Below are positions 2,982-63,350 of a stretch of DNA of 64,000 nucleotides, in pieces. A program made the translations under genes and the position numbers. The stretch is taken from contig CAZDWZ010000011.1 of NCBI GenBank assembly GCA_964509425.1, positions 35,429 to 99,428 of the forward strand. The letters run 5' to 3'. A model generated the notes under the pieces. The model worked only from the letters and a program-made list of their open reading frames with translations. It had not been told where the DNA came from and ran no database searches. Position 1 is the first letter of the stretch; each line of letters starts with the position of its first letter. The DNA is from an uncultured Bdellovibrionales bacterium (GTDB lineage: Bacteria; Bdellovibrionota_C; UBA2361; SZUA-149; CAZDWZ01).

Positions 2982-3317
2982 GTGTCGAAGACTCAAGCTG
3001 CCAAGGGTTTCAGTTCCATGAACGAGTACACGTGCGCGGAGCCCCGCTGCGGAGCGGTGGGCGTCAAGGGTCAGTGGCTCTGCCAGTCCTGCCGCGCTCC
3101 CCTGCGCTGGCTGGCACTCGCTACGGGGCTGCTCTGGTCGAAATGGAACAAGCTGCAACGCTGCGCCGAGGGGGAGAAGAACCTGACGTATCTCGAGATC
3201 GAGGCGCTGGGGATGGAGATTCGGGCCACGCAGGGGGAGATCGCGCGGTACGTGCTCGGTGACGAGTGGGACTATCAGCTCGCCGTCCTGCTCAACAAAG
3301 CGATCCTCGCCTGCTGA
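2982..3317 (+). CDS. small hypothetical protein with CxxC...CxxC zinc-ribbon-like motif
   Basis: 111-aa ORF with CAEPRCG...CQSCRAPL Cys pairs. Not recognised beyond that. Confidence 0.3.
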   Translation: MSKTQAAKGFSSMNEYTCAEPRCGAVGVKGQWLCQSCRAPLRWLALATGLLWSKWNKLQRCAEGEKNLTYLEIEALGMEIRATQGEIARYVLGDEWDYQLAVLLNKAILAC

Positions 3318-3683
3318 CCCCCGAATCGACATCAGCGAAACCCGCCAGGCAAGCAGACGAAGGTAACCCCTCCGTCTCTTGTCTCCCAGTTGTACTTCCT
3401 GTTTGAACAATTCCTCTCCCCGATGCTTTCAGTCCTTCGCGGGAGATCGGCCGCCACATTCTCAAAAAATCTAGAACTATCTAATTCGAACAGGAGGCAT
3501 CTTCCTGAAAAATCACGGTGTATCCCGCACCATCACAGATCTTTTCATGATGCGAGGTCTGCTTCCAGAAGCCTCACAAATAAGTGACGAGCGATCCCAA
3601 ACACTGTCGGCGGACCCATACCCGGTCATCGGTTATCGAATTGGATTTTGGTTTTGTTTCTACAGGTGATTTTTAGGAGGAGT

Positions 3684-4154
3684 ATGAATTTGCGAAAGGT
3701 TTTTAAGCTTGGATGTTTTCTCGGATTGCTGAATCTCGTGCCTCACGATGCGTCGGCGCAGTTTGCGGCGCAAGCGGGACTCATGGAACCTGCGGTCCGC
3801 TGCGCGATGGGTATGTGTTCGAGTAAGATTCGCGGGCGAGTGGAAGCATATTACTCTGACGCCGCCGGCAAGCTCCATTATGCGTGTATCTCAGCAGCAA
3901 ACGTCGATCACACGGGAGTTCAAAACTTCGATCAGGTGCAGACGGAGCTGCATATCTTTCTGAACAACCTCTTCCTTCAGCAACAGCAGACCGCCGCAGA
4001 TTCAGGACTGACACTTCACTCCGGACCTTGGTTTGACGGCTACGGATATTGGATCGGAACGCCGTTTTATATCCAGATGGTTGGAAACTTTTCCGTCGGC
4101 CCAATCGGAGAGGGTGCTTGTCCAGTGGATATCTACGGACCGGTTCCTGACTAA
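3684..4154 (+). CDS. secreted hypothetical protein
   Basis: AGGAGG 7 nt upstream of the internal ATG. MNLRKVFKLGCFLGLLNLVPHDASA signal peptide. Confidence 0.5.
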   Translation: MNLRKVFKLGCFLGLLNLVPHDASAQFAAQAGLMEPAVRCAMGMCSSKIRGRVEAYYSDAAGKLHYACISAANVDHTGVQNFDQVQTELHIFLNNLFLQQQQTAADSGLTLHSGPWFDGYGYWIGTPFYIQMVGNFSVGPIGEGACPVDIYGPVPD

Positions 4155-4214
4155 TGGATTGAGCTCCTCCGCTCTGACGAGCAGAGGAGCTGTATTCTCC
4201 GAAATGCAGAATAT

Positions 4215-4319
4215 CTCTGTGCCTCTGCGTCTCTGTGGTTCAATCGGCACCGCAAAAAAATCACTACGACGCGGTGGCACGCCACCCTGTTTGAACCACA
4301 GAGACACAGGGGCACAGAG
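4215..4319. repeat. 105-bp imperfect palindrome (29-bp inverted arms ending GGTTCAA / TTGAACC), REP- or attC-like
   Basis: Left arm ctctgtgcctctgcgtctctgtggttcaa and right arm ttgaaccacagagacacaggggcacagag are reverse complements with 2 mismatches. A nested GGTGGC..GCCACC hairpin lies in the spacer. The element sits 60 bp after the stop of the preceding ORF. Confidence 0.6.
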
Positions 4320-4548
4320 GAAGTGGGTGTGAAGCGAACTTCTAGCAAACTTGTATCGTGTAGATTGAGGGTCAACGTCCGGTTATCATTTTACCAAGGT
4401 CCAGCATTGCTCTCACCAATTCCGCCGACACCCTTCGAGTAGAGATTCTTCCGGAGTCCGAGAACAAATTTCATCACATCTATGAAAACCACTATGGGGG
4501 CGTGTGCCGCCAAAGAGGTTTCTTTGTGTAATTGTGAAAGGAAATACG

Positions 4549-4950
4549 ATGACTCTGCGTGAACTCCTCTGTTTGCTCCGCGACGTCGGCGTCTACGGCG
4601 CGGCCGGCATCGGGTACAGGGTGTTCTGCCCCGGTGCCAACGAGGAAGGGTGCATCTTCGAGTTCGATAAGCGCGGTGATTGCCCCATCCTCTCGATGTT
4701 CCGGGGGTCGCGTCTCTGGGCGCCGCGCTCCGACTACTTGGACCTCGAGATTGCGAGCGAAGGGTTCGGTCCGAAGCGAACGGCCGACCTGTGGGCGAGC
4801 TGCGCCAAGAAATGCGCTCCGAATTTCTCCGACACCTTTGTGTTCGTGCAAGTCGAGCGCATGGTTGGTGAATTCCCCGAGCGACTGCTCGTTAGGATCT
4901 ACCCGTATCAGACGGGCATGCATCCCCGGGTCGAGTTTCCGGAAAGGTAG
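4549..4950 (+). CDS. hypothetical protein
   Basis: ORF with aaaGGAAAtacgATG RBS-like context. No recognisable domain. Confidence 0.4.
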   Translation: MTLRELLCLLRDVGVYGAAGIGYRVFCPGANEEGCIFEFDKRGDCPILSMFRGSRLWAPRSDYLDLEIASEGFGPKRTADLWASCAKKCAPNFSDTFVFVQVERMVGEFPERLLVRIYPYQTGMHPRVEFPER

Positions 4951-5167
4951 AATGTTTTCTGGCGGACGCCCCCGCCCTTAGAGTTTTCATAGAATGTAAG
5001 CGATGCCGCCGAGTCTCGCTATTCGTTGAGCAAATTTGTAGCGGTGAGGTCAAAAGAGAACGATAAATTCTCATCGTGGACGCCTCTCCTCAATTGAGAA
5101 GGTTTTGCATCCAGTAAAACGCTTCTCAGAAAGGGGATGAGTACGGCTCCGCCGTTTCTCTGATCTC

Positions 5168-5195
5168 TGTTCACTGTTCACTGTTCACTGTTCAC
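5168..5195. repeat. perfect tandem heptamer (TGTTCAC)x4
   Basis: Read directly from the sequence: tgttcactgttcactgttcactgttcac. Intergenic, ~500 bp upstream of the 5705 ORF. Confidence 0.8.
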
Positions 5196-5704
5196 TCGCC
5201 ACGACTTTCGCGTTTCGTCGGACGGCCTTCGCGCAGCCTTGGGGAGCGGCGAAGACGGTCGATATGCTCGTCGGTGAGGCCGGGGAGCCGGCGCGCGATG
5301 ATGCAGCAGGGGTCGCTCCCGCTCCAGCGGCGGTATGCGAAAGCTTCAACCTCACCTTCTCCGACATCATCTTCTTCGTCTGGCTACTTTTGTTTTCGTT
5401 GCATTCCCGCTGACAAATATGGTCGGCAGGAAACCCGCTTGACCACGCATCAGGGACGCCCATCAAACCGCGAGAAAACTGCTAGAAAACTGCTCGCATA
5501 ATGCTCGTTCAGCGAGCGCCCCAGAATTTCCCTCCTTCGCATAAACTTCTTTGAAACGTCGAGGAAGCCATTCCGAGACGCGTAATGTTCGGTCCCACGA
5601 GAGATATACGACAACCCGAAAAATTGTCGGACAATGATCCGCAGCGAAAATGTGCTGCGTGGGATCCGAGCGCCCAAAAAGCGATAGATGAAAAAAGAGG
5701 TTAT

Positions 5705-6124
5705 ATGTCAGCCATCGTCAGCAACACGCTCCGCTCGATCTCGAATCCTGAAGTTTCCGGCGCGCTCGCGCTTCCGCCGCCGAGTCCGGCAGTCCCGGAC
5801 AAGCTTCAACTTTGTGCTGCGGAGCCCGAAAACAATAAGATTGAAGCGGATGCACTTCGTGCATTGAGCTTGATCAAACGAGAGATGAAGGCGCCCTTTC
5901 CCAGCTTCGATGTTGCTAATGCGGAGCTCGGCAGGCTGAATCACAAGTCGTACAAACGACTCTGTGAAATTCATGAGGCTCAAACCGGAAAGCCGTTCAT
6001 TGACAGCATTAACGACACCGTATGGGGCGGGAGCGGGGTAGTGAATGGACTCACTTGGTTGATTACGGGAGACAACTACACGACCATCCTCCGAAAGCGC
6101 TGCGAGCAGTTGTCGAAACCGTAG
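5705..6124 (+). CDS. hypothetical protein
   Basis: Internal ATG preceded by aaaAGAGGttatATG. No recognisable domain. Confidence 0.4.
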   Translation: MSAIVSNTLRSISNPEVSGALALPPPSPAVPDKLQLCAAEPENNKIEADALRALSLIKREMKAPFPSFDVANAELGRLNHKSYKRLCEIHEAQTGKPFIDSINDTVWGGSGVVNGLTWLITGDNYTTILRKRCEQLSKP

Positions 6125-6141
6125 CGGAATTCATAATCCTG

Positions 6142-6170
6142 TTGAACCACAGAGGCACAGGGGCACAGAG
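6142..6170. repeat. second copy of the 29-bp TTGAACCACAGAG(G/A)CACAGGGGCACAGAG arm (direct orientation relative to 4291-4319)
   Basis: 28/29 identical to the right arm of the 4215-4319 palindrome. Begins with GTTGAAC (matches the integron attC R-prime consensus GTTRRRY). A further imperfect palindrome (ctctgcgtccattgcggttgc ... gcaaccgcagaggacgcaaag) follows at ~6216-6286. Confidence 0.6.
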
Positions 6171-6452
6171 ATTGCACAGGGAAGAAGCGAAGCTGGTAAT
6201 ATTCTCCACTCTGCGTCCATTGCGGTTGCATTTTGGTTTGAAGAATTTACTTGAAGGCAACCGCAGAGGACGCAAAGGAGTTCTCTTAAGGTTCTCAGTT
6301 ACAGTATGACGTTGGGTCTCTAATCGAAAGTTTCAAGAGAAAAGGCGAACAAGGAGGTTCTGTGGGATCGGTTACAACCGTCGCACAAAACCTCCTTGCC
6401 GCTTTTGTCGGTCCACCTCCTTTCACGAGATGAGTGAGAAATCAGTCGTGGG

Positions 6453-7787
6453 TCAGATCAGCGCCGCGATCGGTTTCCCGCCGTCCACGAGGTACTGCGG
6501 GCGGCCGCCGCTGTCGCGGAACTGCGTGTCCACCGGGATGCCCATCGCGTAGAGCACGGTCGCGACCAGATCGCTCGGCGTCACGGGGTTTAACTTCGGG
6601 TACTCAGCCTTGGCGCTCGACTCACCGACTACGACACCGCCTTGCAGACCACCGCCGGCCACCATCAGCGAGCTGAGCTGCGGCCAGTGGTCACGTCCGG
6701 CGGTGCCGTTGATCCGCGGCGTGCGGCCAAACTCGCCGGTGACGATCACCATCGTCTCCTCGAGCAGTCCGCGCTGATCGAGGTCGTCGATGAGCGCCGC
6801 CACCGCGCTGTCGAGCTGCGGCCCGAGCTGCTTGAACCCGTCCACCAGTCCGCCGTGCATGTCCCAGCCCCCGAAGTGGAGGGACACGTACTTCGCGCCG
6901 CCCTCGATCAGCCGGCGCGACAACACGAGCTGGTCGCCGATCGTCGTCCGGCCGTAGCGGTCGCGAAGCCGCGGATCCTCGGCCGACAGGTTGAACACGT
7001 TCCCGACATCTCGAGTCAGCGCGCCGAACGCCTGATCGGCGAATCCGTCCATGGCCGCCGCGACGCCGGTCTGGTCCACCTCCTTTCGCATGCTGTCGAA
7101 CGACGTGAGCAGCGTGCGGCGATCGCTCAGCCTCGGAACCGTCACGTTCAGTCGGAGGTTGGCCCGAGCTTCCCCTCGCCCGTTGAACGCTCCGAAGTTC
7201 GCGCCGAGCCACGCCGGACCTCCGGCGTAGATGTCGTCCTGCGCGACGTAGGTGGGAACCCCGCTCGGCGAGCTGGCCCCGTAGTAGCGCGAGATCATCG
7301 AGCCGATCGACGGCCAGATCGGCGGCAGGTTGTTGTCGGCCTGAGCGTGGTTACGCCCGGTCATGAGCCAGTGCGTCCCTCCACTGTGACCCGAGTTGCC
7401 GTGGGTCAGCGAGCGGACGACGGCGAGCTTCGGCATGATCCGGGCGAGCTTGGTGAACGACTTCCCCAGAGTGATCCCCGGAACCGACGTCGGTGTTTCC
7501 CCCGTCATGCTCCGGAACTCCGCGGGCGCGGTCATCTTCGGATCCCACGTCTCGACGTGGCTGGGCCCGCCGCCCAGCCAGATGGTGATGACCCCCTTCG
7601 CTTTGCCGAACGTGGTGCTGCGGTTGCCCGGCGAGTCCGCCGGAGGTGCCGCACGTGTGGTTTGCCCGAACCAGTCGGGCAGGCCGAGACCGAGGATGCC
7701 TGTCGAGCCGAACGCGAGGAAGTTTCGTCGCGTCGAGCCGTCGCAGGTCCTTCCGCCGGTTCTCGCCGGAAGTAGGAACGTGAACAT
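6453..7787 (-). CDS. DUF1501 family protein (sulfatase-like fold) with twin-arginine signal
   Basis: TRRNFLAFGSTGILGLGL TAT-type signal. Motifs WLGGGPSHVETWDPK and TGEFGRTPRINGTAGRDHW are characteristic of DUF1501. Start set at the internal ATG (MFTFLL). The gene is ~63% GC. Confidence 0.8.
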   Translation of the reverse strand: MFTFLLPARTGGRTCDGSTRRNFLAFGSTGILGLGLPDWFGQTTRAAPPADSPGNRSTTFGKAKGVITIWLGGGPSHVETWDPKMTAPAEFRSMTGETPTSVPGITLGKSFTKLARIMPKLAVVRSLTHGNSGHSGGTHWLMTGRNHAQADNNLPPIWPSIGSMISRYYGASSPSGVPTYVAQDDIYAGGPAWLGANFGAFNGRGEARANLRLNVTVPRLSDRRTLLTSFDSMRKEVDQTGVAAAMDGFADQAFGALTRDVGNVFNLSAEDPRLRDRYGRTTIGDQLVLSRRLIEGGAKYVSLHFGGWDMHGGLVDGFKQLGPQLDSAVAALIDDLDQRGLLEETMVIVTGEFGRTPRINGTAGRDHWPQLSSLMVAGGGLQGGVVVGESSAKAEYPKLNPVTPSDLVATVLYAMGIPVDTQFRDSGGRPQYLVDGGKPIAALI

Positions 7788-39807: not shown

Positions 39808-39879
39808 TATTTTGTGGACACATTCGAGATTGTCTCCGCGTCTCCGCGCGCGCGATTTGGAATGTGCCCACAAAAATCA
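39808..39879. promoter_or_regulatory. 20-bp-arm inverted repeat (TTTGTGGaCACATTC ... GAATGTGCCCACAAA) with GC-rich spacer, upstream of the 39926 ORF
   Basis: Arms are reverse complements with 2-3 mismatches. Spacer tgtctccgcgtctccgcgcgcgcg. Candidate operator or attenuator. Confidence 0.4.
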
Positions 39880-39925
39880 GCCGGGGAAGCAGGTGGTCGG
39901 TCGTACCGCCCTTATCCCGTAGAAT

Positions 39926-59686: not shown

Positions 59687-59747
59687 GTTGGATTCGGTTC
59701 GCAGAAATTCCATGCTGCACGGGCGCACAGGGACCAAGCGCTAAGAA

Positions 59748-60090
59748 GCGAACCGAAGCCGCATAGCTCGAACCATCAGCAGACGCCGAAGGAAGAGTGC
59801 GTATGCGGCTAAGGCAAGCTCACCGGGTGTTCTTGTCACCCCGGGAGCTCAGGTGGTTACGTTCCTTCCATGACCATGCGGCCGGGGGGCGAGTTGCCTC
59901 CGCCACCGCCGCTGTGCACTCTGCCATGGCCGCCTTGGTCGCGGCTCATGAGAGATCGGAAGGACCAAACCACCACCGCAGAAAAGAGACGCACAGTTTG
60001 CATCGCTTTTCCTCCTACGCAGCTCTTCAGAACTTACGGTCTCCGGAGTTGTACCGGCACCAGGGAGCGAAGAGGCCCGCTCAGATCGCG
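59748..60090. repeat. copy A of a ~340-bp duplicated element (direct repeat of 62679-63030)
   Basis: Shares long identical blocks with copy B: gcgaaccgaagccgcatagctc, gcgtatgcg, ccggg..cccgg, gaccaaaccac.a..cgcagaaaagagacgca.agtttgcatcgct.ttcctcctacgcagctcttc. Roughly 75-85% identity by eye. Confidence 0.7.
59857..60003 (-). CDS. conserved mini-ORF (48 aa) inside repeat copy A
   Basis: Minus-strand AGGAGGaaaagcgATG (perfect SD, 7-nt spacing). MQTVRLFSAVVVWSFRSLMSRDQGGHGRVHSGGGGGNSPPGRMVMEGT. The N-terminal 16 aa are nearly identical to the mini-ORF in copy B. Coordinates +/-2. Confidence 0.4.
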   Translation of the reverse strand: MQTVRLFSAVVVWSFRSLMSRDQGGHGRVHSGGGGGNSPPGRMVMEGT

Positions 60091-60319
60091 ACGAGCTATT
60101 CCTCGGTTTCGACCTCAGCGCTGATCTTCGCTGAACAATAGAACTATACGACTTTGGTTCTCGCAGTTTATCATTGTTGTCTTCGAGTTTCATCGGCAGT
60201 TCTGCGAATCACCCGCGAAAACTGCGCCGATTCTCACTTTGCGCGATTGCAATCCAGTTGCATTTCGCGGCAATATTTCACGCCAGACCGGCTCTACGTT
60301 TCTTCGAGGAATTTTCAGG

Positions 60320-62502: not shown

Positions 62503-62678
62503 GACGGCTCCCTTGCGTATTTGGCTTTCGTTCACCTCATACCTGATTTCTCAAGGTACGTCAGAATTGCCCTGCCCCTCGGATCGCATTGGTTCGAACG
62601 GGAAATCGGAATCGGACCCTCAGACCGGCTTGGATGTGGTGAATACTAATTAAAATTATAGAAGAGAAAACACGCTCA

Positions 62679-63030
62679 GCGAACCGAAGCCGCATAGCTC
62701 AAATCCTCTCAGCAAGAGCCAAAAGAAGAGGAGCGTATGCGACTTAGGTGAGCATGGACCGGGATTTACATCACTCCCGGAAGCTCATTGTGTGGTCAAC
62801 TTCCGCCTCCGGCCGGGGTCACGTCCGGCAAACTGCCGACGCCCCCAGTTTCCCTTTTTCGGCGGCCATGGCCGTAGTCGAGGAAGGATTGGAATGACCA
62901 AACCACAATCGCAGAAAAGAGACGCAGAGTTTGCATCGCTCTTCCTCCTACGCAGCTCTTCGAAACTTGCGGCGGTCCGGAACGTACCGGGGCCAGGGTG
63001 CGAAGAGGCGCGTTCAGACCGCCGGAGAGT
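62679..63030. repeat. copy B of the ~340-bp duplicated element
   Basis: See copy A. Lies immediately upstream (on the minus strand) of the BtpA-family gene. Confidence 0.7.
62796..62936 (-). CDS. conserved mini-ORF (46 aa) inside repeat copy B
   Basis: Minus-strand AGGAGGaagagcgATG. MQTLRLFSAIVVWSFQSFLDYGHGRRKRETGGVGSLPDVTPAGGGS. This is the C-terminal 46 codons of the 62796..63113 track ORF. The upstream part of that ORF is not conserved in copy A. Confidence 0.4.
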   Translation of the reverse strand: MQTLRLFSAIVVWSFQSFLDYGHGRRKRETGGVGSLPDVTPAGGGS

Positions 63031-63350
63031 ATTCGCTCGCCGAACGATCTCAGCGCAATTCTTCGCAACAAAACGCAATTGCTATGCGGTATCGGGCGGG
63101 CGGAAGCTAACATAAGTCACAGGCGGAAACATGGACGTTTGGGGCCGCCGAGCTTGCAAGAAGATTTCATTTCGCGAAAGAGGAACTTTGGAAGGCCAAG
63201 GTGGCTCAAATTTGCGTCTATCGACAGCCCTCTCGCAAGGATTCCCAAACTGCGCTCCCCGAAAACATTTCGGGAGAGGAGAGGATCGCCGGGGTCGCTG
63301 TTTTATGGCGACTTCCCGGCGTTCCGCTCCGAGGTGACGACTGAGCAGGC

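Follow-up and report, generated by a model that had tools for sequence, protein, structure and literature searches.

Tandem-octamer hairpins in an uncultured Bdellovibrionales genome are probable gene-less copies of an inverted-repeat shell that brackets GxxExxY nuclease genes

We analyzed a 64,000-nucleotide stretch of DNA from an uncultured Bdellovibrionales bacterium (contig CAZDWZ010000011.1, positions 35,429 to 99,428; hereafter the window), in which imperfect palindromes lie around two small open reading frames (ORFs) of 133 and 139 aa. A sequence-only reading, made without database searches, had proposed that the palindromes might be the attC sites of a decayed pair of integron-like cassettes, a family of the repetitive extragenic palindrome (REP) or bacterial interspersed mosaic element (BIME) type, or the scars of recombination. 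Our analysis indicates that the palindromes are probably copies of a widespread inverted-repeat shell, the complete form of which brackets a single gene for a GxxExxY protein, and that the window copies are gene-less and stand around two orphan ORFs. The inventory of the window comprises one full hairpin (arms A1 and A2), a solo arm (A3) and a decayed hairpin (arms A4 and A5) (Table 1).

The full hairpin occupies 105 bp (4215-4319); its 29-nt arms, 93% complementary to each other, enclose a 47-nt loop. It begins 60 nt past the stop codon at 4152-4154 of an upstream ORF (ORF156), and its length, its arm length and its distance from the stop had been reported correctly. The motifs GGTTCAA and TTGAACC had been taken for the outer ends of the arms, which is wrong: both are inner, loop-proximal ends, and the outer ends read CTCTGTG... 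and ...CACAGAG. Folding of the element as single-stranded DNA gave a near-perfect 29-bp stem on both strands, with energy z-scores of -7 to -7.7. Each of the arms A1 to A3 consists of three tandem 8-nt units CACAGAGR (Tandem Repeats Finder, period 8), a feature overlooked in the sequence-only reading. The further copy beginning GTTGAAC that had been noticed about 1.8 kb downstream is A3, whose core at 6142-6170 is 97% identical to the arm at 4291, lies at a spacing of 1851 bp and is preceded by the G that completes this heptamer. A third, related palindrome had been placed at 6216-6286; it exists, in degenerate form, and was measured at 6209-6277, with 24-nt arms (6209-6232 and 6254-6277) that are 83% complementary and carry two degenerate CRCNRAG-type units each. 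The order A1(-) A2(+), the ORFs, A3(+) A4(-) A5(+) can be read as two inward hairpins; alternatively, it can be read as adjacent outward shells containing ORF156 and ORF133 plus ORF139.

Searching the 64 kb with the 29-mer at up to three mismatches returned three matches, A1, A2 and A3, and none in 100 shuffled sequences. When the window was scanned with a position weight matrix (PWM) of the family described below, A1 to A3 scored 43-46 bits, the next-best site scored 1.7 bits and the shuffled maximum was 7.1 bits. Because of this separation, it is not plausible that the arm consensus is an artefact of the search. Apart from A1-A5, no arm copies were found in the 64 kb, and the arm density of the window is 0.06 per kb.

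The 22-nt core of the arm, CCACAGAGRCRCAGRGGCACAG, was scanned against 185,579 species, each represented by a single genome. Exact matches occur in at least 120 stretches of these genomes from more than 10 phyla. Among the matches listed are members of the Acidobacteriota, Planctomycetota, Chloroflexota, Alpha-, Beta- and Deltaproteobacteria, Nitrospinota, Spirochaetota (Spirochaetia), Chlamydiota (Parachlamydiaceae), Chlorobiota (Chlorobiaceae), Bacillota and Bacteroidota (Prevotella), along with other groups, and the core is present in cultured isolates such as Magnetospirillum sulfuroxidans, Propionivibrio limicola, Pelomonas caseinilytica and Sorangium. A further 36 viral contig stretches in IMG/VR contain the core, and cyanobacterial plasmids carry close variants of the arm just downstream of annotated genes.

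Alignment of the copies showed that the arm alone is conserved, in the form of an A-rich flank, T-T-[A/C]-A-C and CACAGAG-R-CACAGAG-R-CACAGAG-AA. Across the family, an arm comprises an outer TT[C/G/A]AC end and, after it, two to four (most often three) tandem units of 8-9 nt with the pattern C-R-C-N-R-A-G-(R), with an A-rich left flank and a T-rich right flank. Most arms among the matches listed have an inverted partner 6-220 nt away. These pairs divide into 87 in the '+-' orientation, with the TTSAC ends pointing outward, 12 in the inward '-+' orientation and 6 direct; the viral loci raise the number of outward pairs to 114, their loops spanning 6-220 nt. The loops are unrelated between genomes and are sometimes common to copies within one contig (locus L124). 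The position of the hairpins relative to genes was not used, as crude longest-ORF calls put spurious ORFs over 53 of the 114 hairpins. Judged by their sequence, the window arms can be assigned to this cross-phylum hairpin family with high confidence.

The link to a gene came from pairs with longer loops. Three pairs with loops of 400-500 nt enclose an ORF with a GPGLLESAYE motif, and the two of these ORFs that were scanned belong to TIGR04256, the 'GxxExxY protein' (NCBIfam, E values of 5e-45 and 2e-44). GxxExxY proteins form a family of PD-(D/E)XK nucleases of about 120 aa (TIGR04256; Pfam PF13366, PDDEXK_3). A survey of the superfamily gives the function of PF13366 as 'Unknown' and reports multiple transfers between phyla (PMC3424549). 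We then approached the association from the side of the gene, with 80 metagenomic GxxExxY loci sampled at random from at least 578 relatives; 71 of the loci had at least 150 nt on both sides. Flanking inverted repeats with a score of at least 12 were found at 59 of these 71 loci, where the null reached 10 at most; almost all of these repeats were of the CRCNRAG type. A strict regular expression for the arms matched on both sides at 53 of the 80 loci, delimiting elements of 416-831 bp, most of them 420-650 bp. In many elements the distance between arm and gene is 0-25 nt on the upstream side and about 13 nt on the downstream side. Arm density was 4.13 per kb within 260 nt of the GxxExxY gene and 0.23 per kb elsewhere in the same loci.

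The units at GxxExxY loci come in several flavours (CACAGAG, CGCAGAG, CGCCGAG, CACGGAG, CGCGGAG, CGCTGAG, CGCAAAG, CACGAAG and CACAAAG) around the constant C-R-C-N-R-A-G. There is a weak correlation between arm flavour and protein distance (Mantel r 0.30, p 0.0005), as would be expected if gene and arms travel together. In the proteins, the residues E13, D64 and E74-x-K76, which form the nuclease signature, are at least 98% conserved. A sequence search of the PDB with the GxxExxY profile returned no match.

Annotated isolates illustrate the complete form, in which the element lies between host genes and is co-directional with them. In Bacteroides finegoldii, radA is followed in order by an arm reading TTCAC CACAGAGGA CGCAGAGGA CACGGAGGA, the GxxExxY coding sequence, the mirrored arm and the next gene. 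On a chromid of Sphingomonas parapaucimobilis (L242, 571-999), a GxxExxY element with arms of the CGCGAAG flavour occupies the fabD-fabG spacer and is co-directional with both genes. In Gemmatirosa kalamazoonensis, a complete short hairpin stands on either side of a GxxExxY gene. With a 41-nt arm as query, at least 40 matches were obtained on each of its two megaplasmids of about 1 Mb, where GxxExxY genes are also present, and a 50-kb sample of a Gemmatirosa replicon contained about seven hairpins, one nested in another. Shells of one flavour were observed in the loop of another, at two levels in L261 5500-5647 (Gemmatirosa plasmid 1) and at three levels in L007 6031-6662. Such nesting suggests that insertion into loops is common.

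Several observations weigh against a reading of the window palindromes as gene-less copies of the GxxExxY shell. The window hairpins have the arm anatomy of the shell; their TTSAC ends do not point outward and they enclose no GxxExxY gene. Both are in the rarer '-+' orientation, which accounts for about one in eight family pairs. A six-frame hmmsearch detected no GxxExxY gene in the 64-kb window, and the arms occur there at one locus only. On plasmids, the records with arms (cyanobacteria) and those with GxxExxY genes do not overlap except in Gemmatirosa. No target-site duplication was detected in the 114 pairs (offsets of 0-5, lengths of 2-9) beyond palindromic TTAA-type ends. A BLAST comparison of 91 gene-less loops with element interiors gave one weak match, and since the loops hold no gene remnant, the gene-less hairpins are not simple recent deletion derivatives of gene-bearing elements. 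Finally, the architecture is also found around other genes. A consensus of the four-helix-bundle protein ('23S rRNA IVS protein', TIGR02436-like; IVS, intervening sequence) served as bait and retrieved 18 loci on IMG/VR viral contigs (L243-L260), with proteins 41-58% identical to the bait. About half of the 18 genes lie clearly between inverted arrays of other tandem 7-8-mers (units ACGTTCA x5, GGCTGTT x4, TAGTCTG, GGAACTAA and GGCATTC), and the other loci score near the null. Four-helix-bundle genes thus show the same architecture with unrelated units, which indicates that the architecture does not depend on the GxxExxY nuclease alone.

The constancy of the arms can be examined in the pairs themselves. 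In the outward pairs, the purines at the unit junctions (positions 8 and 16) agree between the two arms in 45-49% of cases, as expected at random. In the 53 gene-bearing elements, whose sense strand is known, Watson-Crick pairs make up 83% of the arms, and the transition mismatches comprise 56 G.U and 68 A.C. Given this lack of covariation at the junctions and of a G.U bias, selection appears to act on the repeated unit rather than on perfect pairing of a sense-strand RNA stem. Such a pattern fits a protein that recognises the units, or a mutational or homogenising process, better than it fits a purely RNA-structural role.

These data bear on the view that the elements work at the level of RNA. 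The stem in the transcript would then be a bidirectional terminator, a stabiliser or an RNase III excision site that insulates the inserted gene from the host operon, as in 23S rRNA IVSs, and neither DNA mobility nor the nuclease would matter to the conservation of the arms. The architecture of the Coxiella 23S rRNA IVS is the same: this IVS measures 428-444 nt, its terminal stem is 28 bp long, it contains an S23p ORF, and RNase III excises it (PMC4990558). The gene-bearing elements resemble the IVSs of Coxiella and Leptospira in having about 430 nt, a stem of about 28 bp and one small ORF, and in lying inside a transcription unit, as between fabD and fabG. The IVSs are, moreover, regarded as selfish and horizontally transferred, and the four-helix-bundle genes in viral contigs likewise sit between tandem-repeat inverted arms, so that two unrelated cargo proteins have a design in common. 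The very stable folds and the A-rich left and T-rich right flanks also agree with a role in RNA. On the other hand, the GxxExxY elements lie outside rRNA (an rRNA match was found at none of 20 GxxExxY loci, and the window locus lies between protein-coding genes), their cargo is a nuclease, and the window copies carry no such cargo. A terminator scan passed over the main stems of the window; all that it flagged were small hairpins within the loop or within arm A4, and neither A2 nor A5 is followed by a T-run. The pairing data above run counter to selection on an RNA stem, and structural need alone leaves the constancy of one heptamer across phyla unexplained. For these reasons we regard a purely RNA-level explanation as unlikely.

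The remaining alternatives concern DNA. The hairpins could form an independent family that spreads by its own or by host means, with small selfish genes (GxxExxY, four-helix-bundle) homing into the loops, comparable to insertion sequences that target REPs or introns that target terminators. Shells nested in the loops of other shells, gene-less loops without gene remnants, the weakness of the correlation between arms and protein, and the Gemmatirosa gene that lies between two complete hairpins and not inside one all speak for such a course of events. Most genes, however, lie 0-25 nt from the arms on both sides, and this very uniform spacing looks like that of a co-evolved unit; homing into loops also leaves the cross-phylum conservation of the arms unexplained, and we consider it quite improbable. 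An ordinary, genome-specific REP/BIME or REPIN (hairpin-forming REP doublet) family mobilised by a RAYT (REP-associated tyrosine transposase) of the Y1 HUH type would account for intergenic hairpin doublets close to gene ends, for the high copy number in at least one genome (Gemmatirosa, at least 40 per megaplasmid) and for loops common to copies in one contig (L124). Of the three suggestions of the sequence-only reading, REP/BIME comes nearest, insofar as these are dispersed intergenic hairpin repeats. It falls short in that the arms are near-identical in more than 10 phyla and not lineage-specific, that an arm is a tandem octamer array and not a GTAG-headed palindrome, and that GxxExxY, not RAYT, is the only recurrent associated family found. 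All-against-all clustering of 3755 ORFs from 120 loci revealed no recurrent neighbour family and no shared transposase or integrase, the best cluster covering 9 of the 120 loci. A RAYT-driven family is accordingly a very poor candidate. Local duplication, which had also been proposed, is part of the history of this locus: A2 and A3 share the private CACAGGG unit, so that one is a local copy of the other.

An identity of the palindromes as attC sites bounding two promoterless cassettes is barely credible. The window feature and attC sites are alike in being imperfect palindromes downstream of small promoterless ORFs; here the ORFs are small, co-oriented and without obvious promoters, and one arm, A3, is preceded by a G that yields GTTGAAC, a fit to GTTRRRY. 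In attC sites the R'' (RYYYAAC) and R' (GTTRRRY) boxes lie outermost, the stem contains extrahelical bases and a central spacer that stays unpaired, structure is conserved rather than sequence, and the sites stand in same-orientation arrays near intI. In the window the box-like motif is loop-proximal, and the stem is near-perfect, with 1x1 mismatches only; the single-strand folding that had been suggested as a check revealed neither extrahelical bases nor an unpaired central spacer. In the family as a whole, TT is not preceded by G, and the commonest end, TTCAC, gives GTG and not GTT. The arm sequence is kept across phyla and the loops are not, the reverse of what attC sites show. No member of the Phage_integrase family, and thus no tyrosine recombinase, was found among the 50 window ORFs of at least 150 aa, and there is no regular array, three near-identical arms standing at a single locus in the 64 kb; the earlier statements on both points hold. 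attC identity is therefore contradicted on four defining features (box position, stem, integrase and array) and is not supported. An Rfam scan of 3000-7500 (E values up to 1) returned generic miRNA-hairpin models only, all far under their gathering scores. The impression of arms bounding small ORFs nevertheless echoes the real design of the family, in which a small gene stands between two arms.

Returning to the shell with a GxxExxY gene as its complete form, most genomic copies are gene-less hairpins with arbitrary loops, and these may be non-autonomous relatives of the gene-bearing elements, analogous to REPINs or to miniature inverted-repeat transposable elements (MITEs). A GxxExxY nuclease acting in trans could recognise the repeated CRCNRAG units for spread or maintenance and would thereby hold the arm sequence constant. 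By analogy with such systems, mobilisation or maintenance of the gene-less copies by the nuclease would be the best-supported mechanism. In the host, the hairpins would act mainly as long intergenic hairpins and could be RNase III or termination sites, as in the 23S rRNA IVSs.

The comparison with known systems is instructive on both sides. In the REPIN-RAYT system (PMC3116915), short intergenic inverted doublets likewise form long hairpins and can reach a high copy number, the enzyme gene is itself flanked by the repeats, and the gene-less doublets are non-autonomous. The putative partner of the present arms, however, is a PD-(D/E)XK GxxExxY protein of about 120 aa, often encoded in multiple copies, and not a Y1 HUH transposase, and the arms are tandem octamer arrays that are almost invariant across phyla rather than lineage-specific. 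MITEs are also small, have terminal inverted repeats of about 25-30 bp, lack a transposase and share their ends with a related gene-bearing element; here, in contrast, no target-site duplication was detected, the interiors are unrelated between genomes, and the putative autonomous partner encodes a minimal nuclease only and not a known transposase.

Cyanobacterial sequences of the short tandemly repeated repetitive (STRR) type offer a further parallel. They consist of tandem 7-8-nt units in intergenic DNA and have no known function, and they can form inverted arrays that lengthen a helix. They differ in their units, have been described in heterocystous cyanobacteria only and are not linked to GxxExxY or four-helix-bundle genes in the searchable texts. 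STRR heptamers look like relatives, and according to the title of a 1997 report by Vioque, as cited in PMC2858038, they occur inside the RNase P RNA gene. It is possible, and we put it forward tentatively, that these observations delimit an undescribed cross-phylum class of selfish mini-elements, in which a minimal PD-(D/E)XK nuclease (GxxExxY), encoded between inverted octamer arrays, seeds and maintains gene-less hairpins in trans as the nuclease counterpart of REPIN-RAYT. A small gene between inverted tandem-repeat arms may then be a general architecture, used by GxxExxY, by four-helix-bundle Avd/S23p-like proteins, by rRNA IVSs and by cyanobacterial STRRs. We found no published description of the arms, or of a link between arms and GxxExxY, in the searchable literature, which does not in itself prove novelty.

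Table 1. Coordinates of the arms, open reading frames and repeat features at the hairpin locus of the window.
Feature	Position	Strand	Description
ORF156	3684..4154	+	Small protein with signal-peptide-like N-terminus; just upstream of A1; no family match; called as a gene on a Logan contig
Arm A1	4213..4243	-	Read on the - strand: TTGAAC CACAGAGA CGCAGAGG CACAGAGAT, three CRCNRAG octamers after the TTGAAC end; PWM 45.8 bits
A1-A2 spacer/loop	4244..4290		47 nt; holds a small hairpin of its own; not conserved across the family
Arm A2	4291..4321	+	TTGAAC CACAGAGA CACAGGGG CACAGAGGA; pairs with A1 in the 105-bp hairpin; '-+' orientation, TTGAAC ends at the loop; PWM 44.7 bits
ORF133	4549..4950	+	Orphan, 133 aa, between A2 and A3; GC content at third codon positions (GC3) 0.79
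Tandem heptamer array TTCACTG x5.9	5156..5196	+	Solitary; in the 750-nt non-coding gap between ORF133 and ORF139
ORF139	5705..6124	+	Orphan, 139 aa; ends 18 nt before A3
Arm A3	6141..6172	+	Direct copy of A2 with the same private CACAGGG middle unit; begins 18 nt past the ORF139 stop; PWM 43.5 bits
Arm A4	6209..6232	-	Degenerate, CGCAGAG flavour (reverse complement: ..GCAACCGCAATGGACGCAGAG); pairs with A5; fold z -5
Arm A5	6254..6277	+	Degenerate, GCAAC CGCAGAGGA CGCAAAG; the A4/A5 hairpin is likewise '-+'

The two ORFs between the window arms have no Pfam or NCBIfam match, in agreement with the earlier remark that they lack recognisable domains. Among 5.8 billion proteins, each of ORF133 and ORF139 matched itself only. 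The GC3 of ORF133 supports its status as a coding sequence. Single-sequence AlphaFold models of the two proteins reached mean confidence (pLDDT) values of 37 (ORF133) and 60 (ORF139), too poor for a fold search. A 2.7-kb Logan metagenome contig from the same organism covers the three ORFs of Table 1 and ends within or near A3, as judged from coordinates inferred from gene positions; since A3 is a repeat, this end is consistent with an assembly break.

Other repeats were recorded in the window. The TTCACTG array is its best-scoring short tandem repeat and has no inverted partner; it resembles the heptamer arms of the four-helix-bundle genes and the cyanobacterial STRR units and may be what is left of a half-arm from a related type of element. 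The same gap between ORF133 and ORF139 contains, at 5465-5494, an 11-mer tandem repeat, AAACTGCTAGA x2.7. Directly after the ORF156 stop and ahead of A1 stands a short hairpin at 4158-4192, AGCTCCTCCGCTC..GAGCAGAGGAGCT. A site at 39833-39848 with two CGCGGAG octamers on the - strand was considered as a family member and rejected, its units sitting in the loop of an unrelated hairpin. That hairpin, at 39810-39880 (TTTTGTGGACACATTC...GAATGTGCCCACAAAA), with its two CGCGGAG units, may be a remnant of a CRCNRAG-type repeat or may be due to chance. A direct repeat of about 0.4-0.5 kb (59747-60270 and 62678-63176; 82-90% identity, spacing 2933 bp) has the appearance of a duplicated segment from an intergenic or gene-start region. 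At E values up to 1e-5, most of the 50 window ORFs that reach 150 aa seem to lack a Pfam match. The 25 Pfam families found, among them HEAT repeats, DUF1501, Imm-NTF2-2 and DUF6756, occur in one ORF each, several of them on the same protein; such a set would fit an environmental genome of a Planctomycetota-like kind.

The hairpins have practical consequences for the interpretation of genomes. Beside small orphan ORFs they can mimic cassette boundaries, which is a warning for the annotation of integrons and REPs. The arms would also explain recurrent long intergenic hairpins, spurious small ORFs with translations of the HRGTEAQR or SLCLCASV type, and breaks in the assembly of environmental genomes. 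GxxExxY (PF13366) and four-helix-bundle 'IVS' proteins are very abundant and small, and we know of no function for either. The presence of the shell around most of the sampled GxxExxY genes, together with gene-less hairpins in many phyla, provides a testable hypothesis for the substrate of the GxxExxY protein.

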